Source: a virus. Taken from it: a DNA stretch of 64,000 nt. Both the position numbers and the translations under genes were made by a program. How positions within the stretch are numbered: position 1 is the first letter of the stretch; each line of letters begins with the position of its first letter. The notes under the pieces were generated by a model. The model had not been told where the DNA came from. It searched no databases and saw nothing but the letters and a program-made list of their open reading frames with translations. Shown piece after piece: positions 15,399-59,822 of this stretch. Location of the stretch: the IMG/VR virus record IMGVR_UViG_3300028394_000001, positions 96,001 to 160,000 of that record. One strand, 5' to 3'.

Positions 15399-15966
15399 AT
15401 GGTGGTCAACACCTGTTTGGGAGATTGAAACAGGATTTGATGAATATTTTAATTTGTGTTTTAGAAATGAATTACTTGATTTGATTTGTGCAAGTGAACA
15501 TAACAAATATGTCGATATTTGGACAGTAGATTCCGACTATTGCAGACAATTGAAGAATAAAATATATGAAATGATGGATTTAATTTTACCTGAATATTTT
15601 TCAAACTACCACGAATCAAAACCCTTTATATCAAATGGATGGGTGAATCAGCAAAAACCAGGACAATCATTTCCACTACACAGTCATGGTGAAAGTGTGG
15701 TGGCTTGCGTGTATTATATAGAAACTTATGAGAATAGTGGTGACCTTCTGATAGTAGATCCAAGGGGTTCTGTTGTTTGGGATTTGAATGTTGAGAATGG
15801 TGTAAACTCAGTAAAATATAAAAGAATTACACCAAAGGCAGGTAAAATGGTCTTATTTCCATCGTATCTATTACATTCAGTTGAAGAAAATAAGTCAGAA
15901 AAAACAAGATTTGGCATTGCTACAAATATACATATTCCCACGAAACACTATATAAATGACAGATAA
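15382..15966 (+). CDS. 2OG-Fe(II) oxygenase (TIGR02466-like)
   Basis: WVN...HSH...VYYI...DPRG...FPSYLLHSVEEN...R. Confidence 0.85.
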   Translation: MITKHEWWSTPVWEIETGFDEYFNLCFRNELLDLICASEHNKYVDIWTVDSDYCRQLKNKIYEMMDLILPEYFSNYHESKPFISNGWVNQQKPGQSFPLHSHGESVVACVYYIETYENSGDLLIVDPRGSVVWDLNVENGVNSVKYKRITPKAGKMVLFPSYLLHSVEENKSEKTRFGIATNIHIPTKHYINDR

Positions 15967-15969
15967 ATA
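15963..15969 (+). promoter_or_regulatory. putative late promoter (ATAAATA) for the Cys-rich gene
   Basis: Same element precedes gp48 (33390), gp25 (39432), gp8 (45601) and 59454 (59416). Confidence 0.5.
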
Positions 15970-15993
15970 GACCATATCTTCGGAGAACAAAAA

Positions 15994-16395
15994 ATGACAT
16001 TACCAAACACATCTCAAGGAATATCTTTTCAAAATATAAGAGATGAAACGGGCCAACCTGCGGGTTTTTCCGCATCTATGCAATGGGTCAAGGACAACAG
16101 CAAACTCACAAAAGGCGGCGCCACTGGTGTTATTAATGACATGGGATCCCTACGCGATAAGGCATATTATAGAGATAATACTTCAGGCAATTGTAGTAAT
16201 GGTAATTGTACATCTAATTGTAATTGCGGTAATAAAAATTGCAGTAATTGTATTATTACTGGCACCGTAAATTGTGCAAATTGCGATGCTTCGGCTTTTA
16301 TCCAACCGAATTGTAATTGCAATTGTACATATAATTGTACCACTTCGTCAACATCTTTTAACTGTGATTGTTGGATCTGTGCTTGTACTTGGTAA
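15994..16395 (+). CDS. Asn-Cys-rich protein: putative rSAM substrate/RiPP-like precursor with a fibre-tip anchor-like N-terminus
   Basis: 16 Cys in residues 67-131, 13 as NC; ends CWICACTW; immediately upstream of the rSAM/SPASM gene; SD GGAG. Confidence 0.75.
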   Translation: MTLPNTSQGISFQNIRDETGQPAGFSASMQWVKDNSKLTKGGATGVINDMGSLRDKAYYRDNTSGNCSNGNCTSNCNCGNKNCSNCIITGTVNCANCDASAFIQPNCNCNCTYNCTTSSTSFNCDCWICACTW

Positions 16396-16416: not shown

Positions 16417-17901
16417 ATGATTTTTGAAATTAATGCGGAGCGTAGTGCTTCAGACGTAAAGACTTTTTATTATGATAATGAAAAAAATATACTTTCAGAT
16501 TCTACTGGATTTGTTTATGAGTATCCGGAACCACAGATTCCACAACCCGTAACAGGTACAGGCTTGGAGTTATTCCATAAATGTGAAGAGGTTAAACCCT
16601 TTGATAAAAATACTCCACTAAAAAAATCAAAAGATGTTACTGTCATTAAAATCCAATTAGGTTTATCATGCAACTACTCTTGTGATTACTGCTCACAAAG
16701 GTTTGTTGAAAGGCCACCAGAAACTAGTAAAAAGGATATTGAATCTTTCATCTCTAAGTTGGATAATCTAAACATTACAGAAAAAGCTGGACTAAGAGTT
16801 GAATTTTGGGGTGGTGAACCACTTGTCTATTGGAAAACATTAAAACCTCTCGCTGAAACAATTGCTGAGAAATTTTCTCATTGGAAAAAGAAACCATCTT
16901 TTGGCATGGTGACTAATGGATCACTATTGACAAGAGAAATATGTTCTTGGTTATATTATATGGGTTTTGGTGTTGGTATTAGTCATGATGGTCCAGGTCA
17001 ACATGCTCGTGGTCCTGATCCATTTGAAGATCCAGAAAAAAAGAAAATCATCTTAGAGTTTTATAAAGTAATGCATTCCCAAAATCGTATTAGTTTTAAT
17101 TCTATGATGAATAGAAAGAATACTAGCCGCAAACAAATCCATGATTGGTTTGTTAATTTAACAGGTGATCCTACTGTTCCAATTGGTGAGGGTGGTTTTA
17201 TTGATGCATATGATGAAGCCGCTATCAATAGTTCATTAGAAACAAAACAAGAACATTTTGAATACCGAAGAAATGCATTTAATGATATTTATAGTACAGA
17301 TAATACAGATGAACAAATTAATTTTGGTATTATTAATGACAAAACAGACATGTTTGTTCGTGGTGTTTTGAATCACACTGAATCTAAATTTGTTGGTCAA
17401 AAATGCGGAATGGACAACGAAGGAACAATTTCTGTAGACCTCAAAGGTAACATCACAACTTGCCAAAATGTTTCTATAATGGAAACCAGTAAAAACGGTG
17501 AGTCACACTTAGGTGGTAACTTAGATGATTACGAAAATGTTGAACTGAAATCTGTTACTCATTGGATGAACCGAGCAGGTTGTAAGGATTGTCCTGTGTT
17601 GCATTTATGTAAAGGTTCTTGTATGTACCTTGACGGTAAATTTTGGGATATAACTTGCAATAATGCTTATAGTGATAATGTTGTTTTCTTTGCTTTAGCT
17701 CTGGAAAGAATTACAAATGGTTACATACCAACTAAAATTAAAGGTGATGGATTAGCTTTAGAAAGACAAGACATTTGGGGAACACTATATGAACACAAAG
17801 AAGTTGAAAAGAAAAAAATGATACCAATTAAAATTATAGCAGAAAAAATTGGTATGTTAAATGATGTTGAAATTTACGGACAATCAAGAGTAGAGGCATA
17901 A
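16417..17901 (+). CDS. radical SAM/SPASM peptide maturase
   Basis: CNYSCDYC (CX3CX2C), WGGEP, VTNG, SHDG; SPASM KCG...GNITTC...CKDCPVLHLCKGSC...C. Confidence 0.9.
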   Translation: MIFEINAERSASDVKTFYYDNEKNILSDSTGFVYEYPEPQIPQPVTGTGLELFHKCEEVKPFDKNTPLKKSKDVTVIKIQLGLSCNYSCDYCSQRFVERPPETSKKDIESFISKLDNLNITEKAGLRVEFWGGEPLVYWKTLKPLAETIAEKFSHWKKKPSFGMVTNGSLLTREICSWLYYMGFGVGISHDGPGQHARGPDPFEDPEKKKIILEFYKVMHSQNRISFNSMMNRKNTSRKQIHDWFVNLTGDPTVPIGEGGFIDAYDEAAINSSLETKQEHFEYRRNAFNDIYSTDNTDEQINFGIINDKTDMFVRGVLNHTESKFVGQKCGMDNEGTISVDLKGNITTCQNVSIMETSKNGESHLGGNLDDYENVELKSVTHWMNRAGCKDCPVLHLCKGSCMYLDGKFWDITCNNAYSDNVVFFALALERITNGYIPTKIKGDGLALERQDIWGTLYEHKEVEKKKMIPIKIIAEKIGMLNDVEIYGQSRVEA

Positions 17902-17902
17902 A

Positions 17903-18538
17903 ATGAAAGTTACAATCACACAAGAATTGCAGAATTGCATTAACCTTTTAAATTCTATTCCTGCTGTAAAATCAGTTGCAGTATCTGAAGCTTCAGACAT
18001 TATTAAATCACAAATTAAAAATGTAGACTCTTTCGTATTCAGTTTAACTAACGAGATGGGTAATACAATTAAATATATTATTCCTAAAAATGCGATTATT
18101 CGTGCAACAACTCATCCAGTGGAAGATTTTATGGATATTGTTAATGTTATAACACAAAGACTACAATTCTTAGATGAAAATACGAATCCAGATTGGATTG
18201 AACCTTGTTATTATAATAATATCGAAACAACTAGAGTTGAAGTGGTCAGAGAAGATATAGCACCAATTGCCGCAAATACTGAATTGCAATTATTAGTGAA
18301 TAGTTTGGAGGATCTACCTGGACTATTTAATGTTAATGTTTATTCATTAACATCAGGCAATGCCGATAGTGTATTTTTTACTTGTGATATTATTGAACAT
18401 CCTCGAGGTGGAAAAATTAATTTTGTGGTGCCTTTTAGTACATGCACAAATCTCGAAATGCATTCACAACTGATTGATAATGCAAATGAGTTATTCGAAC
18501 AAGCAAAAACAGGAAATACAACAACTAGTCAATCTTAA
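17903..18538 (+). CDS. orphan protein with an internal two-fold repeat
   Basis: ELQNCINLLNSIPAVKSV...KYIIP vs ELQLLVNSLEDLPGLFNV...NFVVP. Confidence 0.65.
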   Translation: MKVTITQELQNCINLLNSIPAVKSVAVSEASDIIKSQIKNVDSFVFSLTNEMGNTIKYIIPKNAIIRATTHPVEDFMDIVNVITQRLQFLDENTNPDWIEPCYYNNIETTRVEVVREDIAPIAANTELQLLVNSLEDLPGLFNVNVYSLTSGNADSVFFTCDIIEHPRGGKINFVVPFSTCTNLEMHSQLIDNANELFEQAKTGNTTTSQS

Positions 18539-18544
18539 AATATT

Positions 18545-19201
18545 ATGAGAATCGAGAATATTTTTGGTTATAACATAACAAGAATACAATGTACAAATGA
18601 ATCTCTCTATAGAGATAATGAAATAACCAAAACGGTTAACAATGTATTTAATTTTCCAAAAGTTCAAAGTAGAGATAGAACACTCAAGGGAGATTCTCAT
18701 AAAGGTGCAGGTCTAACCACGGTTAGTGAATCATACCTTTCTTTAGTAAATCTACCGGGTTTTGGTAATTTAACTGAATGGATTACACAGCAATTTTTAT
18801 TGGCAAAAGAACCTTTGGGGCTTGACAATAAAGGAAATATCGTGTATTATAAGAGAAGTTGGGCAAATAGGTTATTTCGTGGCGGCCATGGATTATGCCA
18901 TAATCACAATAAAGTGGATAACTATATTGCGAGTCTTACGGATTATACAAATGAAAATTTTAGACCAGATGCTGTTGGTATTTTTTATCTTGATGTGCCG
19001 GAAGCTTCATCAAATTTAGTCATAGTTAAAGATGGCAAACCTGAGACTTGGATTGATGATTATGTAGAAGAAGATACTCATTGGATACAACCAATAGAAG
19101 GAGAGTTATTAATACACTCTCCTGATGTATATCATGCTGTGAGTGTTCATCACAATAATTTACCTCGTAATGTTTTTGTTTTTGATATTGAATATGTTTA
19201 A
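18545..19201 (+). CDS. 2OG-Fe(II) oxygenase
   Basis: SWAN...HNH...GIFYL...EGELLIH...YHAV...R.VFVFD. Confidence 0.75.
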   Translation: MRIENIFGYNITRIQCTNESLYRDNEITKTVNNVFNFPKVQSRDRTLKGDSHKGAGLTTVSESYLSLVNLPGFGNLTEWITQQFLLAKEPLGLDNKGNIVYYKRSWANRLFRGGHGLCHNHNKVDNYIASLTDYTNENFRPDAVGIFYLDVPEASSNLVIVKDGKPETWIDDYVEEDTHWIQPIEGELLIHSPDVYHAVSVHHNNLPRNVFVFDIEYV

Positions 19202-19718
19202 AAAGAATCTTTTTGCAACACCAATTTGGCAAAGAATATTGCCAATTGAATTGAACAATGGATTATTAGAAGAATCTACTCAATTTGATGGTAATATATT
19301 TGATATGAACCTAACATATACAAATAAACTAAAAAACATTATTAGAGAATTATACATCAACATCAACTATGAATACATACTTGAAGAACGCACAATTCAT
19401 GGTAGACTGAATATAATAAATTATGGAGAAAATGATACACCACACAGTCACATAGGTAAATCACTTTTAGTTGGTGTCTATTATTTGGATGTTGAGATTG
19501 ATACGGGTGACCTTTTGTTACACGATCCCAGAGGTGGTGTTGTTTGGGATAATTTAGATTTTGAACCGAATGACCCTATAAAAGGAAAAACTTCCAGAAC
19601 TTATCATAGAATTAAACCTGTAAACGGATTATTAATTATGTTTCCTGGATATTTGGTACATTCAGTAGAAAACAATATGAATAAAAAACCAAGAAAGTCG
19701 ATAGTTATTAACATATGA
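19194..19718 (+). CDS. 2OG-Fe(II) oxygenase (TIGR02466-like)
   Basis: ATG at 19194; PHSH...GVYYL...DPRG...FPGYLVHSVENN...RKSI. Confidence 0.85.
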   Translation: MFKKNLFATPIWQRILPIELNNGLLEESTQFDGNIFDMNLTYTNKLKNIIRELYININYEYILEERTIHGRLNIINYGENDTPHSHIGKSLLVGVYYLDVEIDTGDLLLHDPRGGVVWDNLDFEPNDPIKGKTSRTYHRIKPVNGLLIMFPGYLVHSVENNMNKKPRKSIVINI

Positions 19719-21235
19719 AATATACAATATTGGGTGGCGGAAGTGCTGGTTGGTTAACTGCATTGTTCATTAGAAAAATTTGTCCAGATGATGAGGTAAC
19801 TGTCATTGCTAGCTCCGAAATTGGAATTTTAGGTGCAGGTGAAGGCACTACACCTCAATTTCCTATGTTTCTTAAAAAGATTGATATATCGGTTCATGAT
19901 ATAATTAAAAACGCTAAAGGAACATTTAAGAATGGAATTAAATTTACTAATTGGAATGGAGATGGTGAACATTACTATCATAACTTTCAAGATTCATTAG
20001 TAAATTTCGAAGATTACAAACACATTGATGTTAATCCCTATGCTTTAAATAACATTTCAAACCATGAAAATTTAGATAGCTTGAATTTTACTCCACTCAT
20101 ATCTGAAAAAAATAAAGTAAAATATATAAAATCTAATGATAAAGAATGTGGATCGGATGCGTTACATTTTGATGCAAATTTATTAGCCAAATATTTTCAA
20201 ACTGTTGGTTTAGAAAGAAATATTAAACTTGTTGATGATGAAGTTATTTCTGTTGATTCAAAGGACAATAAGATTGTTGGATTTAATTTAAAATCAAATA
20301 ATAAGATAGATACGGATTTTGTTTTTGATTGTTCTGGTTTTAAAAGATTTCTAATTGGTGGCCACTACAAAGGTAAATGGAATTCTTATAATGACCATTT
20401 ACCAATGAAACGAGCGATGCCTTTCTTTGTTCAGAACGACACTAAAGAGATTCCACCATACACAGAAAGTATTGCTATGAAGTATGGTTGGGTTTGGAAG
20501 ATTCCGGTACAAGGTCGATTTGGTTGTGGTTATGTGTTTGATTCGGATTTGGTGTCTGATGAAGAAATCAAAAAAGAGTTGGAGGAATATTTTGGACATG
20601 AAATTATAAGTCCAAGAACATTCACTTTTAATCCAGGTTGTTTTGAAGAGGTGTGTATAGGTAACTGTATTGCTATTGGTTTATCAGCCGCTTTTATTGA
20701 ACCACTTGAAGCGACAAGCATATGGGTTACCATTATGCAATTGACTGAATTTGAAGCGAATAAAAACAAAATCTTAAACGACTCTGGTGATTCTATTGAA
20801 TCATATAATCAAACTATTAAGGCAATAAACAGAGACATTTTAAACTTTATACAATTACACTATTTAACTAATCGTAATGATAGTGTTTTTTGGAATACTT
20901 TTAAAGTAAAAAACAAGGTATTACCGCAAATAGAAGGTCTTAAAGAATTGTGTCAAGATAAAATTCCAGAATCTCACAATTTAAAATACCTTACATTAAC
21001 AGAAAATATTAACATAGGTTGTTCGCGTAGTAACCATCGGGGTATTTTTTCCGAAACAAGTTGGCATCAAGTTGGTGCCGGCATAAAATTCTTTAAAGAA
21101 GATATTGCAAGAAAAGTTTTGGATACTGAATATCCAAATTTTAAAAATGAGGTTATATTTCAGGACTTTTTTGAAAAAAATAGTGAACTGTTATATGACC
21201 ATTACGATTACATAGAGAAATTAAAAAATGTTTAA
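19715..21235 (+). CDS. flavin-dependent tryptophan halogenase (PrnA/RebH family)
   Basis: GGGSAGW, GAGEGT, catalytic K in TFKNGIKF, GWVWKIP (WxWxIP), FIEPLEATS. Confidence 0.9.
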   Translation: MKYTILGGGSAGWLTALFIRKICPDDEVTVIASSEIGILGAGEGTTPQFPMFLKKIDISVHDIIKNAKGTFKNGIKFTNWNGDGEHYYHNFQDSLVNFEDYKHIDVNPYALNNISNHENLDSLNFTPLISEKNKVKYIKSNDKECGSDALHFDANLLAKYFQTVGLERNIKLVDDEVISVDSKDNKIVGFNLKSNNKIDTDFVFDCSGFKRFLIGGHYKGKWNSYNDHLPMKRAMPFFVQNDTKEIPPYTESIAMKYGWVWKIPVQGRFGCGYVFDSDLVSDEEIKKELEEYFGHEIISPRTFTFNPGCFEEVCIGNCIAIGLSAAFIEPLEATSIWVTIMQLTEFEANKNKILNDSGDSIESYNQTIKAINRDILNFIQLHYLTNRNDSVFWNTFKVKNKVLPQIEGLKELCQDKIPESHNLKYLTLTENINIGCSRSNHRGIFSETSWHQVGAGIKFFKEDIARKVLDTEYPNFKNEVIFQDFFEKNSELLYDHYDYIEKLKNV

Positions 21236-39426: not shown

Positions 39427-39442
39427 GAGTAATAAATAGAAG

Positions 39443-39835
39443 ATGGCAACATTAAAGAAATTATATTCAGATTTAGACCTCACATTCAAACGTGTGCCAG
39501 GTACGAATGATGTTGCGCTCCGTTATGATGAAAATGCCGTAATAGCCTCAATTAGAAATCTGTTGTTGACTAATTTTTACGAGAGGCCTTTTCAACCAGA
39601 TGTTGGTTCCAATTTAACCCAATTACTGTTTGAACCAGCAACAGCAATTACCGCATCAATTTTAGATATGGAAATAAGAAATACCATTAAAAATTATGAA
39701 CCAAGGGTTGCGATTAATGAATTGACAGTAACACTTAATGAAGATGGAAATGCATTTTCAGTATATTTGAGTTTTTATGTTGGAAACAATTCAGTACCAA
39801 CGGCAGTTAACCTAATTCTTCAAAGGTCCAGATAA
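39443..39835 (+). CDS. 25: baseplate wedge gp25
   Basis: YSDLDL.F...AV..SIRNL.LT...ERPF.P..G...YEPRV. Confidence 0.92.
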   Translation: MATLKKLYSDLDLTFKRVPGTNDVALRYDENAVIASIRNLLLTNFYERPFQPDVGSNLTQLLFEPATAITASILDMEIRNTIKNYEPRVAINELTVTLNEDGNAFSVYLSFYVGNNSVPTAVNLILQRSR

Positions 39836-45070: not shown

Positions 45071-45601
45071 ATGTCAACAATTAAAATTTCAGAATTACCT
45101 AAATTCAATACAATCAATGCAAACACAGCAAACACTTTGTTTGTTGGTGTTGATATACCGTCTGCACAAACATTCCATTATACTGCTGGAACATTAGCAG
45201 CTGGTCTATTTGCGAATACTGAATTGGTTGTTGGTAACAGCAAGAACTTAACTATTACAGGCAATACATTTCCACAAAAAGGATTCATTTTTACACCTAG
45301 AATTTTACAAGGTGCTCAGACAGCTATCACAATCGATTTTGCAACAGATTCTGTGATCCGTGCTACTTTTGCAGCTACAGTAACAAATACATTATCAAAT
45401 TATGTTGCAGGTAAGGTTGTTGAAGTGTGGTTAACAAACACAGCAGGCAATACCCAAAGTTTGACACACGGTTGTTTGGCAAATAATTCAACAACAGGAA
45501 CAACTTCAACAAATGTCTCAGCTGGACACACTATCTATTTAAAATACTTTAGTATTGCTGGAGACCTTGCAAATACTTTTGTTTCTGTTGTAAAATCATA
45601 A
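45071..45601 (+). CDS. virion protein (short fibre/connector-like)
   Basis: MSTIKISELP N-terminal motif of fibre-type proteins. Confidence 0.6.
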   Translation: MSTIKISELPKFNTINANTANTLFVGVDIPSAQTFHYTAGTLAAGLFANTELVVGNSKNLTITGNTFPQKGFIFTPRILQGAQTAITIDFATDSVIRATFAATVTNTLSNYVAGKVVEVWLTNTAGNTQSLTHGCLANNSTTGTTSTNVSAGHTIYLKYFSIAGDLANTFVSVVKS

Positions 45602-45611
45602 TAAATAAATC

Positions 45612-47036
45612 ATGGCTACAAATAAAAACATTCTTACAAATCAAGCAAAAGTAATCAGAGTCAAGACGGATTATTATAATCCGTCCTTAGAACTTAATGG
45701 CGATTCAATTAATTCAACTTATATATTTCTTAGCCAAGAAGATACATGGCCAACAATATCTTCCGTAGAAACTCCGACACAACCACAAGAAGACCAATTA
45801 TCATTAAAGAAAATATTTAAGAATATGTTTGCGGTTAAATTGATAAATTCCAGCAATATTCATCCAGTAATCCAAAGAATCAATTGGAAAAATAACACGA
45901 ATTTTTTTGCCTATTCCGACACTGTGAATTTGAATGCAAAAGATGCAAATGGCTTTCCACTGTATAATTTTTATGTAAAAAATAGATATGACCAAGTATT
46001 TAAATGCTTAGCAAATAACAACGGTGGTTTGTCCACATCTGAACCATATTTTGAACCTGGTTCATATGGAACAAATAATATTTACCAAGGCAATGACTTA
46101 TACAAGTGGAAATATATTTATACCATTGATGCAGGCCTCAAGAAAACCTTCTTGGATACTGTTTGGATGCCTATTCCTGTCGGTGTAAACACACCACAAC
46201 CATACTTGACTGATGCAGGTGTTGGAGACATTCAGGTAATTAATGTAACAAATGGTGGTACAGGTTATGATGCAGTAAACACATTCATTGTTGTTTCCGT
46301 CACCGGAGATGGTACAGGATGTGTTGCTAATATAACCAGTTCTGAAATAACATCTGGTGTAATTAAAGATATTGTGGTAAAACCTGGTTTTTCAGGTAAA
46401 AACTACACTAACGCAAATGTCACAATAACTGCATATACTTCCGCAAATATGGTTGTGGTTTCTTCCTCAGGCACAGGAGCAACAGCAGTTGCACCAATTT
46501 CACCAGTAGGGGGACATGCATATGATCCAATATCTGAATTGGGATGTAACCATGTTATGTACGCAGCTGAATTTAACGGAACAGAAAATGGAATTTTACC
46601 TACAACTGGTGTAAACTATCATCAAGTTGGTATACTTGTCAATCCACAAACTTATGGAACATCAGGTCCTGTGTTAGCAAATGGCGCAATTTATAATACA
46701 ACTACACAATTTTTACTTTCTTCTGGTCAAGGAAATGTATATACATCCGGTGAGATTGTGCAACAAAAAGATGCAAATGGTAATGTAACTTACTATGGAA
46801 CAGTTTTAAATTTTAACACATCAAGTAATATTTTACAGTTGATAAATACAAGTGGAAATTATACTGTTGGCCAAACAATTCTTGGTGTAACCACAGGCGC
46901 TTCTAGGGTTGTTTTCAATGTAACTGAACCTTCTCTCATTCCATTCTCAGGATATATAACCTATGTTGATAATAGAGTTGGTGTTCAAAGAAGTAATGAT
47001 GGCATCGAACAATTTAAATTTGTACTAGGATACTAA
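45612..47036 (+). CDS. 8: baseplate wedge gp8
   Basis: R.NW, FYV.N...VFKCL.N, Y.WKY.YTI, GGH..DP..ELG, SG.I.Y.DNR. Confidence 0.88.
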   Translation: MATNKNILTNQAKVIRVKTDYYNPSLELNGDSINSTYIFLSQEDTWPTISSVETPTQPQEDQLSLKKIFKNMFAVKLINSSNIHPVIQRINWKNNTNFFAYSDTVNLNAKDANGFPLYNFYVKNRYDQVFKCLANNNGGLSTSEPYFEPGSYGTNNIYQGNDLYKWKYIYTIDAGLKKTFLDTVWMPIPVGVNTPQPYLTDAGVGDIQVINVTNGGTGYDAVNTFIVVSVTGDGTGCVANITSSEITSGVIKDIVVKPGFSGKNYTNANVTITAYTSANMVVVSSSGTGATAVAPISPVGGHAYDPISELGCNHVMYAAEFNGTENGILPTTGVNYHQVGILVNPQTYGTSGPVLANGAIYNTTTQFLLSSGQGNVYTSGEIVQQKDANGNVTYYGTVLNFNTSSNILQLINTSGNYTVGQTILGVTTGASRVVFNVTEPSLIPFSGYITYVDNRVGVQRSNDGIEQFKFVLGY

Positions 47037-47045
47037 AGGAAAAAA

Positions 47046-50000
47046 ATGTCTTTAAATTTCAATGTTAGCCCATATTTTGACGATTTTGATCCATCAAAAA
47101 ACTTTCACCGTATACTTTTCAAACCAGGTTCTGCGGTCCAAGCTCGTGAATTAACGCAATCTCAAACCATTCTGCAAAATCAAATTTCAAATTTTGCATC
47201 ATCGATCTTTTCCACAAATACTCCAGTTTCTGGTGGCCAAGTAACGGTTAACCAAAATTGTTATTTTATTAAATTGAATAACACATATAATGGAATAACT
47301 GTTGTTGCAGAAAATTTTGCAGGTCAATTAATTCAAGATGCAAGTGGAACAATTCTCGCTAGAGTTTTAGCCACATCCGAGTCAACAGCCAGTGGTTCCG
47401 TTGCTGGTGATCCTCCAACATTAATCATATCATATCTGTCGGGTGCTAAATTTACAGATGAAGTTGTTCTTACAACAGCAAGTGGTCCAACATATTTCGC
47501 TTCTGTTATAACATCTACAACAACAAATATATCAACAGGATCATCTTCTGTTGCCTCAATTTCTAGTGGTGTTTTCTATGTAGTTAATGGTTATTCCGTT
47601 TCAGACACCACAGGTATTAAATATTCAATTGGTAATTTTGTTCAAGTTGATCCACAAACAATCATACTAAACAAATATGATAATACACCATCTTATAGAA
47701 TTGGTCTGCAAATTACAGAAACAATTTATGATTATATAAATGATTCTTCTCTATTAGATCCGGCGGTTGGTGCTTCAAATTATCAAGCGCCAGGTGCAGA
47801 CCGTTATGTTATTACCTTAACACTCGTAACACTGCCATTAACACTAGGTAATGATGACAATTTTATTGAATTGGTTCGTATTGAAAATGGTAAAATCTCA
47901 AAACAAGTTGATGGTACAGTATATTCAACCATCGATGATTACTTTGCAAAACGTGATTATGAAACAAACGGTGATTATATCGTTAATGATTTTAAACTGA
48001 CACCATCAGCAAACTCAATATCACCAACGGAATATGATTTAAACATTAGTAAAGGTGTTGCATATGTTCACGGTTATAGAGTTGAGAGCCAATCTGATAT
48101 TAAATTAACAAACGACAGAGCTCAATCTGTTGCAAATATTAGTAATAATCCCGTCTTTATTGATTATGGAAATTATTTTGTTGTCGATACTGCAAATGGC
48201 GTTTTCGACATTTCAACAATGCCGCAAGTTGATTTGCATTGTGTTCCTGCAGCTAACGTCATTTCGACCAATACCAAAACTTATTCAGCCACTTTGGCGG
48301 GTACAGCTTTTATTCGCAATCTAAAATACGCTTCAGGAACTGGAACAAATACAAAATCTTATGTTTACAATGCATATATTTCAGATTTTTCCGCAAACAA
48401 ATTAACCGGAAATGTTACTTCAGGTACCACAAATACATTTACCATTACAGATACAACTGGTTCTTTTTCACCTGTTGCAAATGCATATTATGATATGACC
48501 GTCAGTATGAATACAGGTGGTCTAATTGATGTTAGAAATATTGTTAGTTATAATGGTTCCACCAAAACAGCAACTGTTGATTATCCGTTTACAGTTTCAC
48601 CTACAGCAAGTTCAATATTTTCATTAATATTCAGAGGCACTGATGTTGAGTCTATTATTAAAACCGCAGGTTCAGGTTCATATGCAACAACTGCAAATGT
48701 TAATATTAACTCCACCAGTGGAAAAGTTAACGGCCTTGCAAATTCTCAAACAATATTATTCTCTCAAGTATCACCTGAAGTAATATATCAAATTGGATAT
48801 CCTTATGTTGCTCAGTTGATTACAACATCATATTACACACAAAGAGTATACCGATCAAAAACATTTACTGGTACAACATTAACGCTACAATCTACTTCCG
48901 GAAATGCAAGCAATCCATTAAAATTTACAGGTTCTGGAACCTTAGACAGTTCATCAGCTCAACAACTGTTCATGGTTATTGATAATTCAACAGGAAGTGT
49001 TATGGATTTTACCACATCAGGTAATACAATTTCCATTTCAGGCGATAAAACCACAGCAACCTTCACTGTTGGATCAGGCGTTGGAACAAATAAAAATGTT
49101 ACAATTATCGCACAAGTTCAAGTGAGTAGTGGTGATTCTTCGAGTTATGTTTTAAAATCTAAGAGTTTAGTTACAGGAAATACCACAATTGTTGGTACAC
49201 TCGCATCAATTGCGGGTACAAATTCTTATCAGGACTTAACAAAAGGTCAAATTACAATTAAAAATTCAGATGTTACCACAACTGGAAAAATATCTTTATA
49301 TGTAAATGACGTTAAGAAAATTACAAAAGTTTTTGATTCGGGTGTAGCAGGAACAAACCCAACTGGTTCATTGTCAAATTACACAGATGTTACTTCCTAC
49401 TATAAATTAGACAACGGCCAAAGAGACAATTTTTATGACCATGCATCTGTATCATTAATTCCAGGTGCACCTCGCCCAGTAGGCAACATCTTAGTTGTTG
49501 TGGACTACTATTCACATAGTCAAGCTTCATCTGGTGATGGTTACTTTAGCATTCAATCATACAATACTTCAGGATCAACATACGGTGGCGTATCGAGTTC
49601 AGCTGAAGCTTATGCACAAATTGGAACATACACAGCTAATGACGGTGTTAAATATACATTAGGTGATTGTATTGATTTCAGGCCTTGCCGTGTAAATAGC
49701 CAGACTGCCTATATTTGGGAATATTCAGGATCTCAAACTTCCAGTAATGATATTGGTATGTTAATACCGAATAATTTATCAAATTTTTCAGGATTCTATC
49801 AATATTATTTGGCTAGAAAAGATAAATTGGTATTAACAAAAGATAAGAGTTTCAATATTATTCAAGGAACACCTTCTGTCAATCCTTCTTTTCCAAATCA
49901 ACCTGCCGGTTCTCTAGTAATAGCAAATCTCTCACATGACGCTTATACAGCTTTTGTTCCAGGTGAAGGTACTCCAGGTACAATTTCTAACCTATCTATT

Positions 50001-53000
50001 AATAAGATTATTCACAAGCGTTGGGCTAAAGAAGACATTACAGATTTAGAAACCCGTATTAATAATTTGGAATACTATACATCTTTAAGTATTTTAGAAT
50101 CGAAAGCAAGTTCTCAACAAATTCCTGATGCTAATGGTTTGAATAGATTTAAAAATGGTATTTTAGTTGATGATTTTTCATCATTTGGAACAGCAGATAC
50201 TTATAATCCAGACTACGCTGCAAACATTAATGTACGCAAAAATCAAATGTCGGCGTTGCAAACTGTTGAAAATTTTCAATTACAAAATCCTGTCGTTCTT
50301 GCTGGTTTAGGTACGATAGCAAATACAGGCAGTTATAGCATTAGTGGCATCAATAATGCTCAAACTAATCTATTCACATTACCATTTACAACTGAAAATG
50401 TTGCATATCAACCACTTGCAAGCAGTACAGTTTCGGTTAATCCTTTCAATGTTTCAGTAACTGAAGGTATTCTAAATTTAAATCCTCCAATGGATAATTG
50501 GGTAGATAACAACGAATCTCCTGCAATTCTAATAACTGATCCTAATTTCCAAGTTTATCAATCCAGTAATGGCGTTAACTTATTAAGTTCAGGTGACTAT
50601 CAAACAATACCAGGAACAACAACCTTTAAAAGCACTACATCAACAAGTACAACAGGAAATCAAGTTGTGGGGTCAGCAACAACAACCATAGTAACCGACA
50701 CTTATGTTAATCAGATAAAAAATACTCTTTCAGGTGCTTATAATCCATCATCTTCAACTTTTGCAATGAATAATGGTTATTTGACAAATGTTGCAATATT
50801 ACCATACATTAGAAGTCAAAGAATTGTTATTAGTGCAACAAATATGTTAGTTAATTCAAATGTATCAACATATTTTGATGGTGTAGATGTATCTAAATAT
50901 TTGTCTAATCCAAATACCATCGAATTAACTGCTGTATCTGGAACATTCAACAAAGATGATATTGTTGGTTTCTACATAGCAAATGTTTTTTATCCAGTTG
51001 CTCGAGTAATTAACGTATATTATTATCCAAATACATCAAAAGTTCGTTTATATGTTGCAGATATAGTTGGCGCACCAAATGCAGTAGGATCAACAATATT
51101 AAGAAATGCATTTTTCGACGTTAGTGGTAATTATGTTTCTTCTTCTGCATCAGGAACCGTGCCGGCTGGAGCAATAGTAAACATAAGTCAATCAGGATCA
51201 ATCAGTGGTGTTGGAGGAGGTTGGTCTAACACATTAAATAGTGGAACAACAACTCAATTATATGGAACACCAGTAGTACAAAACTATTCAACTCTACTTA
51301 ACAATTATGGTATTTGGGGTGATGCAACTAACGGAACAACATTTAATTTCACTTCGCCGGTAACATTCACAACGGCAGGAACATATACCATAGAAGTTGG
51401 TGCATCTGGCAGCGCTTTTGTTTATGCAAATGGAACAAGTATTGGTGCATCCTTATCAAGCACACCCGCATCTACGACAACATTCACATATACAGTCGCA
51501 ACTGCTCCAGCTACAGTAAGAATTGGTTTTTCTGCGACAAGTTCAGGTACAACAACCTCAGCTTTTGGTATGACGATCAAAGATTCTGGAAGTAATATTG
51601 TTTATTCAACAATCAATCCACCAATCTCATATGTAAATGCAGGTACAAAATCTATATTGCCTGGTGGTGGTGAATGGTTCATTGATGCCACACAATTAAG
51701 ATTAGATCCATCAACTGCGTCCAATATTTCAGATTATTATGTAGGCTCAACTATAAGTGTAACTTCAAAATATGTTTATATATTCAATAACAGATATTAC
51801 AGTAAAACTCAGACATTCAATTCAACTATTACCGCCTACAGTAACGCAACAAAATTAGTCACATTATCCACACCTGTTAATTTATCATTAGGAACAAATT
51901 CACAAATAGGTGGAGATATAACTTCTGTTTATTCAATTAGTGGTAATTTAAGTAAAATTAATGCTGCAGTTCAAGCAGGAACTTCACTAGCTAAACCATC
52001 CACAGATGAAGCTGGTAATTTTGTTGCTGTTTTCAATATACCACCTGGAGTATTCAAAACAGGTAGCAGAGTGTTTCGTATAGATAACAGAACTGTTGCA
52101 ACTCAGCCATCAACCGCAACAACAATAGCTGAAGCTACATTTGTTGCTTCCGGTTTATCGACAGTATCACAACAAGTAAATTTTGCACCTTCATTAGATT
52201 CATCCAGCTCAGTGTTTACACAGGTGAGTGAGTTATCAAATCAATTTATTAGTTCAAATAGAAGTAGCACCACAAGAAGTTGGGACTTGACGCCTCCACC
52301 GCCGCCGCCACCACCACCGCCACCGCCGCCACAGAATTCAGATCCACTTGCCCAGACTTTTATTGTTTCTAAAGAAAATTATCCTAATGGAATTTTCTTA
52401 TATTCAGTTAAATTATTTTTCTATTCAAAAGCTACAGATAATTCTCCAGTCAGACTTACTGTTGTTCCCACACTTAATGGTTATCCAACAGGAGATACGT
52501 TGGACTATTCAACTGTATACCTAGAACCAAGTAAGGTTAATGTTTCAACTACACCACATTATTTGGATCCATCTTCTTATACTGAATTTATTTTCCCTGC
52601 ACCTGTTTATATTCAATCGGGTGTTATGTATGCTTTCATTGTAAAATCTTCTTCGAAAGATTATTTGGTTTATTACGGTCAACAAAATCAAATTGCTATA
52701 CCTTCTACAGCGAAGGCTAAAGTGTCTGATCCAAATCCAGCCAGTCCGACAAAAATTACGGCTTCACCTTATATTGGTTCTCTATTTGAATCACAAAATA
52801 GTATAACATGGTCAGCAGACCAAACTAAATCTATGATGTTTGTTATGGAAAAATGTGTATTCTCAACTGACAGAGTTTCAATACCTTTTATTATTCCTAA
52901 AAATCTACCATATAGAAAAATGGGAAGTCAAGAAATTTTGAATAAGTTAGATGCAAATAGTGCTTCAAACCTATTTGGAAACTATTCACTAGATAAAAAT

Positions 53001-54017
53001 TATCATGCATTAAACATCACTACAACAGATTTCACACCTTCAGGAACTGATATTAATTATACATATGCTACAACATTAAGTACCGGAAATGTTCCGACAG
53101 GTGTTAAATCAGTCAATCCTGGAAAATTAGGAAGTCCCACATATGAAGACATTTATCTGTCCGATGGTAATGGAGAAAGAGTCCTATTGAGATCCTCAAA
53201 TAGTTCATTCTCTTTGTATGCATCATTAGTTACAAATGATTCCGATGTGTCTCCAATCATTTCCGATGATGGTCTTACACTGTATACTGTTTCCTATAAC
53301 ATTAACAACATGGGTATTGGTAATAACATTATTTCAATTAGCAATCCAGGTTATGGTTATAATGTTAATACAACAACAATATCAATTTCAAGTCCTGATA
53401 TTGGTTCCAATACTGCATCATTAGGATTTACTGCAAATGCAAATGGTGCAATTACTTCAGTTTATACCATCACATCAGGAGCTGGTTACATTAACACACC
53501 AACAATTACAATTTCCGATGCTGCAACTCGCGGCGGAAATGCAAATGTTGTTATAACTGTTGCAGGTGAAACCTCACCTTCAGGTGGTAATTCAATTGCA
53601 AAATACTTCACAAAGAAAGTTGTACTTGCACCAGGAAATGATTCAGGTGATTTGCGTGTATACTATACAGCTTATAAACCACCTGGGACAGCTGTTTATG
53701 TTTACTACAAAATTCTAAACGCTGACGATACTTCAACATTTGAATCTGGAAATTGGCAATTAATGACCACTCTCCAAAATCCAAATACATACTCCAAATC
53801 TAGGACTGACCTATATGAATATGAGTGTGCTCCTGGAATTTTTGCAAGTAATCAAGCTGATAACAGTATAAGTTACACCAATTCCACAACAGGCCAGACG
53901 TATAATTCATTCATCCAATTTGCAATCAAGGTAGTTTTGGCAACAAGTGATAATACCATTGTTCCATTCCTAACAGATATTCGCGCATTAGCATTACCGG
54001 CAGGAACAGGAATCTAA
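47046..54017 (+). CDS. large virion structural protein (VrlC/DUF4815-like)
   Basis: FNVSPYFDDFD..KNF.RILFKPG.AVQARELTQ.Q; APGADR; RFKNG.LVDDF; DPLAQTF. Confidence 0.85.
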   Translation: MSLNFNVSPYFDDFDPSKNFHRILFKPGSAVQARELTQSQTILQNQISNFASSIFSTNTPVSGGQVTVNQNCYFIKLNNTYNGITVVAENFAGQLIQDASGTILARVLATSESTASGSVAGDPPTLIISYLSGAKFTDEVVLTTASGPTYFASVITSTTTNISTGSSSVASISSGVFYVVNGYSVSDTTGIKYSIGNFVQVDPQTIILNKYDNTPSYRIGLQITETIYDYINDSSLLDPAVGASNYQAPGADRYVITLTLVTLPLTLGNDDNFIELVRIENGKISKQVDGTVYSTIDDYFAKRDYETNGDYIVNDFKLTPSANSISPTEYDLNISKGVAYVHGYRVESQSDIKLTNDRAQSVANISNNPVFIDYGNYFVVDTANGVFDISTMPQVDLHCVPAANVISTNTKTYSATLAGTAFIRNLKYASGTGTNTKSYVYNAYISDFSANKLTGNVTSGTTNTFTITDTTGSFSPVANAYYDMTVSMNTGGLIDVRNIVSYNGSTKTATVDYPFTVSPTASSIFSLIFRGTDVESIIKTAGSGSYATTANVNINSTSGKVNGLANSQTILFSQVSPEVIYQIGYPYVAQLITTSYYTQRVYRSKTFTGTTLTLQSTSGNASNPLKFTGSGTLDSSSAQQLFMVIDNSTGSVMDFTTSGNTISISGDKTTATFTVGSGVGTNKNVTIIAQVQVSSGDSSSYVLKSKSLVTGNTTIVGTLASIAGTNSYQDLTKGQITIKNSDVTTTGKISLYVNDVKKITKVFDSGVAGTNPTGSLSNYTDVTSYYKLDNGQRDNFYDHASVSLIPGAPRPVGNILVVVDYYSHSQASSGDGYFSIQSYNTSGSTYGGVSSSAEAYAQIGTYTANDGVKYTLGDCIDFRPCRVNSQTAYIWEYSGSQTSSNDIGMLIPNNLSNFSGFYQYYLARKDKLVLTKDKSFNIIQGTPSVNPSFPNQPAGSLVIANLSHDAYTAFVPGEGTPGTISNLSINKIIHKRWAKEDITDLETRINNLEYYTSLSILESKASSQQIPDANGLNRFKNGILVDDFSSFGTADTYNPDYAANINVRKNQMSALQTVENFQLQNPVVLAGLGTIANTGSYSISGINNAQTNLFTLPFTTENVAYQPLASSTVSVNPFNVSVTEGILNLNPPMDNWVDNNESPAILITDPNFQVYQSSNGVNLLSSGDYQTIPGTTTFKSTTSTSTTGNQVVGSATTTIVTDTYVNQIKNTLSGAYNPSSSTFAMNNGYLTNVAILPYIRSQRIVISATNMLVNSNVSTYFDGVDVSKYLSNPNTIELTAVSGTFNKDDIVGFYIANVFYPVARVINVYYYPNTSKVRLYVADIVGAPNAVGSTILRNAFFDVSGNYVSSSASGTVPAGAIVNISQSGSISGVGGGWSNTLNSGTTTQLYGTPVVQNYSTLLNNYGIWGDATNGTTFNFTSPVTFTTAGTYTIEVGASGSAFVYANGTSIGASLSSTPASTTTFTYTVATAPATVRIGFSATSSGTTTSAFGMTIKDSGSNIVYSTINPPISYVNAGTKSILPGGGEWFIDATQLRLDPSTASNISDYYVGSTISVTSKYVYIFNNRYYSKTQTFNSTITAYSNATKLVTLSTPVNLSLGTNSQIGGDITSVYSISGNLSKINAAVQAGTSLAKPSTDEAGNFVAVFNIPPGVFKTGSRVFRIDNRTVATQPSTATTIAEATFVASGLSTVSQQVNFAPSLDSSSSVFTQVSELSNQFISSNRSSTTRSWDLTPPPPPPPPPPPPPQNSDPLAQTFIVSKENYPNGIFLYSVKLFFYSKATDNSPVRLTVVPTLNGYPTGDTLDYSTVYLEPSKVNVSTTPHYLDPSSYTEFIFPAPVYIQSGVMYAFIVKSSSKDYLVYYGQQNQIAIPSTAKAKVSDPNPASPTKITASPYIGSLFESQNSITWSADQTKSMMFVMEKCVFSTDRVSIPFIIPKNLPYRKMGSQEILNKLDANSASNLFGNYSLDKNYHALNITTTDFTPSGTDINYTYATTLSTGNVPTGVKSVNPGKLGSPTYEDIYLSDGNGERVLLRSSNSSFSLYASLVTNDSDVSPIISDDGLTLYTVSYNINNMGIGNNIISISNPGYGYNVNTTTISISSPDIGSNTASLGFTANANGAITSVYTITSGAGYINTPTITISDAATRGGNANVVITVAGETSPSGGNSIAKYFTKKVVLAPGNDSGDLRVYYTAYKPPGTAVYVYYKILNADDTSTFESGNWQLMTTLQNPNTYSKSRTDLYEYECAPGIFASNQADNSISYTNSTTGQTYNSFIQFAIKVVLATSDNTIVPFLTDIRALALPAGTGI

Positions 54018-54241: not shown

Positions 54242-57200
54242 ATGGCAAATACAGTTAATATTTTAGGCTACGCCAACACATTTGGTGATTGGATCGTTGC
54301 AACTAATGCAGGTTCCAATGAAATCAATTCTATTGGTAAATACGATTGGACCAAAGATTCTGGCACATTGACTTTAAATGGTACAGGTACTGCTTTAACT
54401 GTTGCTAATAATGTCATTGTTGCAGGTCAATTACTGGTTACAGGTACAGCTTCTTCAGCAACTATCGACAATAATTTAACTGTAGGTAAACAAGTATATT
54501 TTACAAACACTACACAAAGCTTGGTTGCAAGTGGTTCTGTTACTGCAAATGGTACAGTTTATGCTAGCAATACAGGAACAAGTTTAGCCGTTGCAAACAA
54601 TACTACAATTGGAGGTTCTTTAACGGTAGGTGGTGTAACATTAATCTCAAATACATTAACTGTTACTAAATCAACAGTTCTTCAAAATACTTTGAGTGTT
54701 GGTAAAGACACAATAATTACAGGTAATTTAAATGCAACATTAGAAACTTATACTAACTTATTAGTATCTAATACGGCTATCAGAGCAGCAGTTTTATCAG
54801 TTCTTGGTACCACTTATACTAACACACTTCAGGCCAATACAAACATTTTAACTGGGGTAATTCAATCTAACACTTCAGTAAATACCGCAACACTATCTGT
54901 AACAGGCACATCCTTTACAGATAAACTACAATCTAACACCGCAGTTAATACTGCCACAATATCCGTTACTGGTGCAAGTTTTACCAATACTTTACAAGCT
55001 AACACCGCCGTAAATACAGCCACGTCTTCAGTAACAGGCGCAAGTTTTACCAATACTTTACAAGCTAACACCGCTGTAAATACAGCCACACTATCTGTTA
55101 CCAATATTTCATATACCGATAAACTACAAGCTAATGCCGTTGTAAATACTGCGACTTCTTCGGTGACAGGTATTTCTTACACAGATAAGTTACAATCTAA
55201 TACAGCAGTTAATACTGCCACAATATCCGTTACTGGTGCAAGTTTTACTAACACACTTCAATCTAATACGGCAGTTAATACTGCGACTTCTTCAGTGACT
55301 GGTATTTCTCATACTGATAGATTACAAGCTAATAGTTCAGTTAATACGGCTACAATATCTGTTACTAATATTTCTCACACAGATAGATTACAGGCTAATA
55401 GTTCAGTAAATACCGCAACACTATCTGTTACCAATATTTCTCATATCGATAAAGTGCAAGCTAATAGCGTTGTAAATACAGCCACATTATCTGTTACCAA
55501 CATTGCTTATACTGATAAGTTACAAGCTAATAGTGTTGTAAATACCGCCACACTATCGGTCACAGGTGTTTCGTATACTAACACACTTCAGGCCAATACG
55601 AATGTTTTAACTGGAGTAATTCAGTCTAATACTGCTGTTAATACGGCTACAATATCTGTTACTAATATTTCTCATACAGATAGATTACAGGCTAATAGTT
55701 CAGTTAATACTGCTATTTTATCTGTTACCAATATTTCTCATATCGATAAAGTACAAGCTAATAGCGTTGTTAATACAGCCACATTATCGGTTACCAATAT
55801 TTCGTTTACAGATAAGTTACAGGCTAATAGCGTTGTAAATACAGCCACATTATCTGTTACTAACATTGCTTATACCGATAAGTTACAAGCTAATAGCGTT
55901 GTAAATACAGCCACATTATCCGTGGTTGGCAATACTTGGACTAATAGAGTTCAAGCTAATGCTTCCGTAAATACAGCCACATTATCCGTGGTTGGCAATA
56001 CTTGGACTAATGCATTACAAGCTAACGCGACAGTTAATACGGTTACAATGTCTGTGGTTGGCACTAGTTACACAGGATATTTGCAATCTAATAATACTGT
56101 AAACACTACTACAATTTCAGCAACAGGAAATACATATACTAGTTATCTTATTGCAAATAATGATATTTCTGTATCTAAACTGTATGTTACGAGTACACTT
56201 CTTTCGGCAACAAATGCTGTAGGTGCATTCCAATCTCTAACAACATCGGCCGGTTTGACTGTTGGTGGTACGTTTACAATTAACGGAACAACAGTTTATA
56301 CAACAAATAATTTTGTAATAAACGCAAACACTTATACACCAATCACAAGTTATTTTAGTGTTAATAGGGGTACTGCAAATAATCAACCCACTGGTATTCC
56401 AAATGCAAATGCATCCATTCGTTGGAACGAATCAAACAAATATTGGGATATTTTAGATTCAAATAATGGCATTTACTATTCGCAAATTATGACTGCGAAT
56501 ATGATTTCTGATAGTGCAACATCTACAAGTATTTCAACTGTTCCAACAAGTAAAATTTCAACCGCAATTTATGCTCATGCGAACGCGGCCTTTGAGCAAG
56601 CTAATGTAGCAATACCAGCTAGCTCGTATGCTAACTCAGCTTACCTGCAAGCTAATTCAGCCTATGTGTCACAGAATACAACCGGTCAATATGCTAACTC
56701 GGCCTATGGTGTATCCAATTCAGCTAGTTCGTATGCTAATTCAGCTTACCGTGGCGCAAATTCAGCCAGTTCGTATGCTAATTCAGCATTTATTACTGCT
56801 AACAATGCTTTAGCTAATGTTGGTTCCATGGTTACGTCTAATAGCAGTACCATGTATACTTTTGCCAACAATTCGGCATCCACTTCGAATGTCACAGGTT
56901 CCGTTGTTATTGCGGGCGGCCTTGGTGTAGGTGGTAGTGTATACACTGGCAATGTTGTGATTAGAGGTTCTGGTAATGGTATTACCTTTGTTGATGGTTC
57001 GGTTCAATTCACAGCAGGTTCACCTGCAGCATCTGTATATGCTAATGCCGGTTTTGCACAGGCTAATACAGGTACTCTAAATGCAGCGTCAGCCAGTTCA
57101 TACGCTAATGGTGCATTCTTAGTAGCTAATACAGGTACTTTAAATGCTGCAGCAGGAAGTTCATATGCCAACTCAGCTTATGGTGTAGCTAATAATGCAT

Positions 57201-59453: not shown

Positions 59454-59822
59454 ATGGCCGCAGGATATTCAGACCAATACATGGAACAAGGGTCATCCTT
59501 TAATGCCCGTCTGGCGTTAACAGATGATTCTGGAGTTCCATATGACTTAACAACCTTCACTATAAATTCCAGAGCAAAGAAATCTTACACAACAGCTAAT
59601 GTTGCTTTCACTTTTACTGCACAAATCAGTACGGAAGAAGAAGGTGTAATATTCCTCTCGTTGCCTGCAGCAAATACTGCAAATGTACCTTATGGAAAAT
59701 ACGTCTACGATGTAAATATTAAAGATTCAGTAACTAATTTGGTAACTCGCGTATTGGAAGGACAAATATATGTTTCTCCTGGTGTGACCGGAGTAATTAA
59801 TTCCAATGGTCCTAACGCATAA
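59454..59822 (+). CDS. virion structural/adaptor protein
   Basis: EQG..F...L.D....DLT...G.YVYDV.......RVLEG...V.PGVT motif. Confidence 0.75.
   Translation: MAAGYSDQYMEQGSSFNARLALTDDSGVPYDLTTFTINSRAKKSYTTANVAFTFTAQISTEEEGVIFLSLPAANTANVPYGKYVYDVNIKDSVTNLVTRVLEGQIYVSPGVTGVINSNGPNA

Follow-up and report, generated by a model that had tools for sequence, protein, structure and literature searches.

What does a phage make when it encodes a small cysteine-rich protein next to an enzyme that resembles peptide maturases? The question is raised by P0001, an open reading frame (ORF) of 133 aa at 15994-16395 on the plus strand of a 64,000-nucleotide stretch of phage DNA, called the window here (positions 96,001 to 160,000 of IMG/VR virus record IMGVR_UViG_3300028394_000001). 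The window is part of a complete record of 170,520 bp with terminal repeats. The phage type is a T4-like myovirus, with a baseplate module of the gp48, gp25, gp6 and gp8 type at 33.4-47 kb. We favour a late structural protein over the classical leader-plus-core precursor of a diffusible peptide, because the N-terminal module of P0001 is shared with other phage proteins, its relatives carry S74 or Hint fusions, a late-type motif precedes the gene and neither a protease nor an exporter is encoded nearby. We give a probability of roughly 0.55 to the reading of P0001 as a late, enzymatically cross-linked fibre-tip protein. It would be a small protein that starts with the attachment module of gp38-type adhesins. 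Since its Cys/Asn-rich domain is encoded next to radical-SAM, oxygenase and halogenase genes, chemical modification of the receptor-binding tip by the phage itself is probable.

The N-terminal module of P0001

P0001 consists of two parts. The N-terminal module (residues 1-60, 15994-16173, plus strand) contains no Cys, and all 16 Cys of the protein lie within residues 67-131, 13 of them as Asn-Cys. The Cys/Asn-rich domain (residues 65-133, 16186-16392, plus strand), the presumed enzyme substrate, ends in CWICACTW with the terminal Trp and has no C-terminal extension. The original prediction had the feature start at 15963, a position that belongs to an ATAAATA element; the ORF itself starts at 15994. 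The two-part layout it described was correct, but the second part is a conserved domain of fixed length and not a loose (x)NC-repeat core.

Direct searches with P0001 gave little. The protein matched no family in Pfam (E ≤ 0.1), PHROGs (hmmscan) or NCBIfam, tblastn against 50,697 deposited phage records returned nothing at E ≤ 1, and no near-identical DNA to the gene was found. A phmmer search of residues 1-66 against 1.84 billion representatives found its own family only, spurious matches aside. These were two large proteins with an 'LTWVKDI' repeat and one low-complexity repeat, and they were rejected. The link to fibre-adjacent proteins surfaced via the N-terminus of a relative, P0132, and then via profiles. 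With the P0132 N-terminus, tblastn aligned to residue 1 of small proteins in Pelagibacter phage HTVC008M, Vibrio phage PhiImVa-1 and a KVP40-like Vibrio phage. These proteins start with MALPSTGSISLAQVNEELGK...ATGAISMSDLRGK, which is the pattern given in the original prediction. The module consensus, from residue 1, is M[AT]LPxxGxISxxxINxELG...S[LM]...SGxIS[MF]SDxxGK over about 58 aa, and P0001 conforms to it, although the second half of its module is divergent.

Three comparisons support this likeness. Residues 1-66 of P0001 and the protein of Vibrio phage PhiImVa-1 align from Met1 in both by BLASTP (E 9e-5, 34% identity). A hidden Markov model (HMM) built from 15 cultured-phage modules has P0001 as its sole match among the 1545 six-frame ORFs of the P0001 genome (E 0.0027, the next at E 1.1). 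With a threshold of E ≤ 1e-3, it also recognises 131 members of the family out of 187. In hhalign, the profiles of the family N-domain and of the canonical module align with each other over columns 1-58 with a probability of 98.7% (E 3.8e-16). The proposed N-terminal resemblance to small fibre-adjacent proteins is therefore real.

The gene position of the other module carriers is informative. The canonical module query matches at least 48 cultured-phage records, most of them at the junction of a 'tail fiber protein' and a 'hypothetical protein', and the canonical-module profile finds at least 480 protein clusters. The module gene begins at or overlaps the stop of the fibre gene in Schitoviridae, Autographiviridae, Straboviridae, Eneladusvirus jumbo phages and others, including N4-, T7- and T4-like phages. 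In Vibrio phage EniLVp02 (Straboviridae), the gene before it encodes the 'long tail fiber distal subunit'. Judged with the S74 HMM, an S74 chaperone terminates the upstream fibre in 10 of 15 fetched loci. One locus (L028) has a PTR and S74 fibre followed at once by a protein with the module and a GP38 domain. Among the 120 best-matching module proteins, about 40 have a precomputed PF05268 (GP38 adhesin) annotation. On recheck by hmmscan, it was recovered in one of five flagged proteins, below the cut-off, and the C-domains are still visibly Gly-rich and gp38-like. Judged by sequence, the N-domain is a widely shared module and no private leader of a ribosomally made, post-translationally modified peptide (RiPP); its other carriers lack a radical S-adenosylmethionine (rSAM) enzyme and hold the gp38 position after S74-matured fibres.

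The HTVC008M module protein carries Gly_rich_2. In its locus (L013, 54918-59681), the protein with the module and Gly-rich part follows a 1068-aa protein terminated by S74, and the other flank holds four 2-oxoglutarate (2OG)/phytanoyl-CoA dioxygenase genes and a ferrochelatase-like gene. From this gene order, fibre-tip genes and oxygenase arrays adjoin there too.

In the AlphaFold2 (AF2) model of P0001, residues 1-60 form a small folded domain with a predicted local distance difference test (pLDDT) score of 73-89. A homotrimer prediction (alignment A1) scored 0.01 with the monomer fold uncertain, and it carries no weight either way. A fold search of BFVD with the model of a relative gave many matches of about 50-60 columns at the N-termini of small phage proteins. 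Two of these are annotated with a Gp38 domain, in Rhizobium phage RL2RES and Agrobacterium phage OLIVR5, and tblastn from an alphaproteobacterial phage module did not find these two proteins.

The Cys/Asn-rich core and the neighbouring enzymes

The relatives of P0001 in metagenomes comprise 119 proteins of 73-233 aa and at least 131 of 234-466 aa. The N-terminal region MTLPxxGxISxSDxNxExG is common to all of them. The core that follows has a fixed length and reads GNCxNGNCTxNCNCGN..CxNCxIxGxVNCxNCD....LQxNCNCxCTYNC....NCxC, conserved over 77-129 relatives. Asn is conserved as strongly as Cys, both being near-invariant, and the conservation of the core is higher than that of the middle of the N-domain. 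With its fixed length and its conserved Cys and Asn, the core is a conserved domain, unlike the hypervariable core of a RiPP.

The C-termini were sorted into classes over 187 sampled members. The C-terminus is bare in 54, of which 31 have a final Trp. An S74 chaperone is fused after ...C(F/A)W/SDDxLK (the slash marks the junction) in 22; of the close-length relatives, about one-fifth carry their own S74 chaperone. The Ser...Lys spacing in this SDDxLK motif matches the Ser911/Lys916 catalytic dyad of endoNF. By analogy, cleavage before the SDDxLK Ser would leave an aromatic ...C(F/A)W end, like the ...CACACW of the short forms. P0001 itself has no S74 domain by Pfam. Two further endings account for 12 members combined, namely a Hint/intein-like domain joined at a Cys and a hydrophobic tail of a second type. 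The Hint/intein-like self-processing domains stand behind the Cys-rich core in P0123, P0131, P0141 and P0193, the last with two Hint-type stretches. Hint is also fused to the canonical module protein of the cultured T7-like Providencia phage PSTNGR1 (L021 1501-2454). The second tail type is shorter and reads ...CVVATEL...RGYH...

The remaining 99 members end in an all-helical domain of about 165 aa with a final hydrophobic helix. This helical tail (...CNCSKIICAKLY..GLM..IWAADQ.YG...) is the commonest long form, seen in P0132, P0144, P0153, P0198 and others, and such relatives lie at L009 8001-9002 and L010 8001-8900. AF2 models the tail confidently (pLDDT 85-93). The tail of the relatives of about 300 aa has no match in the PDB, Pfam or NCBIfam. 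It resembles the C-terminal part of a DUF4815 phage protein (BFVD, E 1.6e-9, 32% identity, 167 columns). It is dissimilar to the DUF4815 protein of the window, and it is missing from the P0001 genome.

P0001 lies in a same-strand block that encodes, in order, PhoH, a DUF6445-like protein, a 2OG-Fe(II) oxygenase, P0001, an rSAM/SPASM enzyme, a 211-aa ORF, two 2OG-Fe(II) oxygenases, a Trp halogenase and a PD-(D/E)XK exonuclease. The oxygenase gene upstream of P0001 (15382-15966, plus strand; 2OG-FeII_Oxy_5 or TIGR02466-like) has homologues in all cassettes. The rSAM enzyme of 494 aa (16417-17901, plus strand) resembles SPASM peptide maturases and matches Pfam Radical_SAM, phrog_1802 and SPASM TIGR04085. 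Its nearest named NCBIfam families are geopeptide, PapB, QhpD and CcpM, all far below their cut-offs. The 211-aa ORF (17903-18538, plus strand) has no family match. It is followed, on the same strand, by the two oxygenase genes (18545-19201 and 19143-19718) and a FAD-dependent tryptophan halogenase (19715-21235; Pfam Trp_halogenase, E 1.6e-92).

We compared the cassette over eight distinct loci, the window and seven metagenomic ones. The phages are T4-like ones, a single GC-rich one whose adaptor is of the SU10 type, and others that carry a GP88 gene. The rSAM gene adjoins the Cys-rich gene in all eight, its products being 56-67% identical to the rSAM enzyme of the window, and 2OG-FeII_Oxy_5 genes accompany it in every locus. 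The Trp halogenase is present in three of the seven metagenomic cassettes (L002/L004, L006/L007 and L008; 47-48% identity) and an Asp/Asn beta-hydroxylase (Asp_Arg_Hydrox) in two. No cassette contains a protease or a transporter/exporter, and here there is none from the PhoH gene to the exonuclease gene. The arrangement thus has the RiPP-type pairing of a Cys-bearing candidate substrate with an adjacent rSAM/SPASM maturase in 8/8 loci. In place of a disposable leader and a variable core with a protease or exporter, it has a folded shared N-domain, a conserved core and neither gene.

Since the rSAM/SPASM neighbour is obligate and the action of CrpC on CrpA is a precedent, thioether-type cross-linking would be the most likely chemistry of the core. 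The conserved Asn, the Asp/Asn hydroxylase of relatives and the conserved terminal Trp suggest candidate targets of the oxygenases and the halogenase.

Several cassettes differ in detail. The PF05118 Asp/Asn beta-hydroxylase sits in the helical-tail cassettes (L009 11810-12613 and L010 9795-10574), where the rSAM gene is 5' of the Cys-rich gene; the surroundings in L009 also include a fatty-acid desaturase-like gene and TctC-like genes. The S74-fused form P0074 (L001) closes a tail module directly before holin and lysozyme genes. The position after the rSAM gene is held by an ORF of 170-225 aa in L001, L002, L005, L006 and L008, with no BLASTP similarity to the 211-aa ORF of the window. The 211-aa ORF may be a fast-evolving partner, for example a specificity factor, a chaperone or an immunity protein.

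Candidate fibre partner, probable late expression and competing explanations

A tail fibre of 1723 aa is encoded at 54242-59413 on the plus strand. Its C-terminal part is an S74 intramolecular chaperone (aa 1626-1723, nt 59117-59410), with Pfam Peptidase_S74 matching at aa 1626-1678 (E 6e-15). It is the sole S74 protein among the ORFs of the genome. Profile searches over the whole 170.5 kb thus count one module protein, P0001, and one S74 fibre, which makes this fibre the candidate docking partner of P0001. The original prediction that no cap gene stands next to the fibre was borne out by the profiles, which place the module only in P0001. The next ORF, of 122 aa (59454-59822), has its own upstream CATAAATA, no Pfam match and no N-module. 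Between the baseplate genes and the fibre gene lies a 2323-aa DUF4815 protein (47046-54017; three stretches, E 8e-60), presumably a giant structural or fibre protein.

The element GATAAATA at 15961-15968 (plus strand), a putative T4-type late promoter, overlaps the TAA with which the upstream 2OG gene ends. A Shine-Dalgarno-like GGAGAA, read from the sequence, follows at 15981-15986 (plus strand), 7 nt 5' of the ATG. The gap from GATAAATA to the ATG of P0001 is 24 nt. ATAAATA also stands upstream of gp48 (33390, 27-nt gap), gp25 (39432, 4 nt) and gp8 (45601, 4 nt), so the motif itself had been correctly noted before all of these genes, but the proposed likeness does not extend to the spacing. 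Further sites lie 5' of the S74 fibre (54151) and 5' of the next ORF (59416). Over the whole window, ATAAATA is under-represented rather than enriched, with 20 sites where 32.7 would be expected. Overall enrichment was therefore set aside as promoter evidence, and only the conserved position counts.

In seven of the eight loci, ATAAATA occurs at most 45 nt 5' of the Cys-rich gene; the chance per locus is at most 0.018, a figure that ignores the relatedness between loci. These seven include L009 and L010, in which the rSAM gene precedes the Cys-rich gene; the L010 motif falls inside the last part of the rSAM coding sequence. Apart from the motif, the flanking sequence is not conserved across the loci, and among the eight the motif is absent upstream in L001 only, a locus of 63% GC. 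The conserved position is consistent with a dedicated T4-type late promoter. The motif ends 4-5 nt before the ATG in gp25 (39432-39445), gp8 (45601-45614) and the Cys-rich gene of L005 (6989), L006 (6989) and L009 (7989). Should such motifs act as T4-type late promoters, the transcripts would have little or no leader.

We propose that P0001 is a fibre accessory protein of the gp38 position whose adhesin C-domain has been swapped for a conserved Cys/Asn-rich domain. P0001 would be transcribed late from its own TATAAATA-type promoter. In the cytoplasm, the rSAM/SPASM enzyme would put Cys-derived cross-links into the core, most likely thioethers to Asn/Asp-type carbons as with PapB, QhpD and CrpC. 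The 2OG oxygenases may then hydroxylate side chains, in keeping with the Asp/Asn beta-hydroxylase of relatives, and the conserved C-terminal Trp would be the target of the halogenase. The N-module of about 58 aa would finally anchor this domain, once modified, at the distal end of the single S74-matured fibre (54242-59413), and the domain may act there as a hardened distal tip for binding a receptor or a metal. In this scheme, docking, presence on the virion, the individual modifications and the role of the tip are inferred.

Several observations weigh against a fibre-tip protein. The P0001 gene lies 38 kb upstream of the S74 fibre and outside the tail module, in an island with PhoH, oxygenase and exonuclease genes. 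The family trait of standing directly downstream of a tail-fibre gene is thus absent from P0001, and among the loci of its relatives one in eight (L001) ends a tail module. Neither profile matches any solved structure. With the P0001 model, Foldseek against the PDB found nothing and a wide VIA search gave no hit at Z ≥ 2, so that solved gp38 is unmatched. The BFVD links to the Gp38-annotated proteins are weak (probability 0.16-0.77 over about 52-57 columns), and AF2 confidence is low over the Cys core of P0001 (pLDDT 33-57). No module-bearing protein has been characterised, and phrog_26817 and phrog_26746 are annotated with 'unknown function'. In addition, the hydrophobic helical tail found in 99 of the 187 sampled relatives, that is, in most of the longer ones, suggests membrane tethering, and the virion-tip reading leaves this tail unexplained. 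The comparison with gp38-type N-domains therefore has a mixed outcome, with a match at the level of module profiles and none by PDB profile or Foldseek. The analogy to gp38 holds by gene position and C-domain type in the relatives only, and it does not extend to a match with solved gp38 of the T2/S16 type.

Three other explanations were weighed. The helical tail would suit a non-virion factor, inside the cell or tethered to the membrane, for example a metallothionein-like metal or redox buffer or an anchored effector that merely reuses the N-module. The auxiliary-gene island beside PhoH in T4-like phages and the CxC-rich make-up, which is typical of metal-binding proteins, fit such a factor as well. 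However, the same tail matches the C-terminal part of a DUF4815 protein, and DUF4815 is also found in the 2323-aa ORF beside baseplate and fibre genes. The self-cleaving S74 and Hint tails of relatives, the conserved late-promoter motif and an N-module homologous to the one in fibre-adjacent proteins also argue against a non-virion role, which we regard as improbable. A helper in fibre assembly, either a chaperone or a transient cap that is not or only loosely kept on infectious virions, seems unlikely. Genes right behind fibre genes often code for chaperones, and the downstream proteins of Alteromonas phages V22 and A5 are chaperones and proposed transient caps (PMC10579305). The fibres upstream of module genes, however, already have an intramolecular S74 chaperone, and the module proteins have adhesin-like C-domains (Gly-rich, gp38-like). 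Elaborate enzymatic modification is hard to reconcile with a transient helper, and the S74 fusions imply a stable trimeric product.

A classical RiPP would require the N-domain to be a leader that is recognised by the rSAM enzyme and removed, with release of the cross-linked core as a toxin, signal or metallophore. The N-module, however, starts hundreds of rSAM-free proteins after tail fibres and is folded in prediction. The core is conserved above the middle of this 'leader', the reverse of the usual RiPP pattern, the cassette has no protease or transporter, and relatives carry S74 trimer-chaperone fusions. What speaks for a RiPP is the obligate rSAM/SPASM neighbour, which among named families is nearest to RiPP maturases, and the presence of tailoring oxygenases and a halogenase, as is typical of RiPP clusters. 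Iyer et al. (2010; PMC2938197) also interpreted the dioxygenase/halogenase clusters of cyanophages as genes for secondary metabolites. We consider a classical RiPP quite improbable.

Returning to the late fibre-tip protein, its implications reach beyond this phage. We found no description in the literature of phage rSAM-modified fibre or structural proteins or of the P0001 family, and nothing useful on the virion proteomics of Serratia phage BF. It is a tentative generalization, at somewhat less than even odds, that phages of several morphotypes make a receptor-binding fibre tip by RiPP-type chemistry and plug it onto S74-matured fibres via an adaptor of about 58 aa. If true, it would provide the first case of a virion adhesin that enzymes cross-link and halogenate. 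Radical-SAM natural-product chemistry would then extend to a structural protein as a new route to make or diversify adhesins, and the protein-sized substrates of rSAM enzymes would gain a new class. Marine T4-like phages have dioxygenase/halogenase clusters whose substrate has long been sought, and it would be identified as well; P0001 is a concrete candidate substrate for the 2OG-oxygenase/Trp-halogenase arrays of marine and freshwater T4-like phages, unexplained since 2010. The widespread and unnamed N-terminal adaptor marks gp38-position proteins near S74 fibres and provides a handle for finding receptor-binding tips.

Comparison with known systems

The gp38 of T2/S16-type phages (PF05268), which caps the tip of gp37, resembles P0001 in being small and in having a conserved N-terminal part followed by a distal domain that varies. 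The relatives that share the module are closer to it, as they are encoded right after the distal fibre gene and many have Gly-rich, gp38-like C-domains. P0001 differs from gp38 in that it has no Pfam GP38 match, its C-domain is Cys/Asn-rich without a Gly-rich sandwich, and its gene is not adjacent to a fibre gene. The partner fibres of module proteins end in S74 chaperones, whereas gp37 of T2 and S16 is not known to have one.

The module family (phrog_26817 and phrog_26746; PhiImVa-1 UOX40303, HTVC008M AGE60399, EniLVp02_0085) has the same Met1 module of about 58 aa with an exchangeable C-domain. Unlike P0001, its proteins have no Cys/Asn-rich domain and no rSAM neighbours, and they are encoded directly behind a fibre gene. 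Oxygenase neighbours are also absent, apart from the four on the other flank in HTVC008M. With respect to S74 (endosialidase-type) fibres and spikes, the 22 S74-fused relatives of P0001 carry PF13884 behind the Cys core, and P0001 lacks it.

On the enzymatic side, P0001 resembles the CrpA/CrpC, QhpC/QhpD and PapA/PapB pairs, in which an rSAM/SPASM enzyme forms thioether cross-links in a Cys-rich protein or peptide, in that it too is a Cys-rich candidate substrate encoded beside a SPASM radical SAM enzyme. The rSAM enzyme CrpC of Methanococcus voltae acts on Cys-rich CrpA, indicating that whole proteins can be substrates (PMC13692751). The present system differs from those of CrpA, QhpC and PapA in that it is phage-encoded, has a fibre-associated module and S74 or Hint tails in relatives, and its rSAM scores are far below the cut-offs. 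The 2OG-dioxygenase/Trp-halogenase clusters of cyanophage Syn9, a T4-like marine phage, contain enzymes of the families found here. For these cyanophage clusters, small-molecule products were proposed and no ribosomal substrate was named (Iyer et al., 2010; PMC2938197). Unlike the Syn9 clusters as described, the cluster here contains a conserved candidate protein substrate and an rSAM gene. On the favoured reading, P0001 and its cassette would join two known kinds, fibre accessory proteins of the gp38 position and rSAM-modified Cys-rich proteins.

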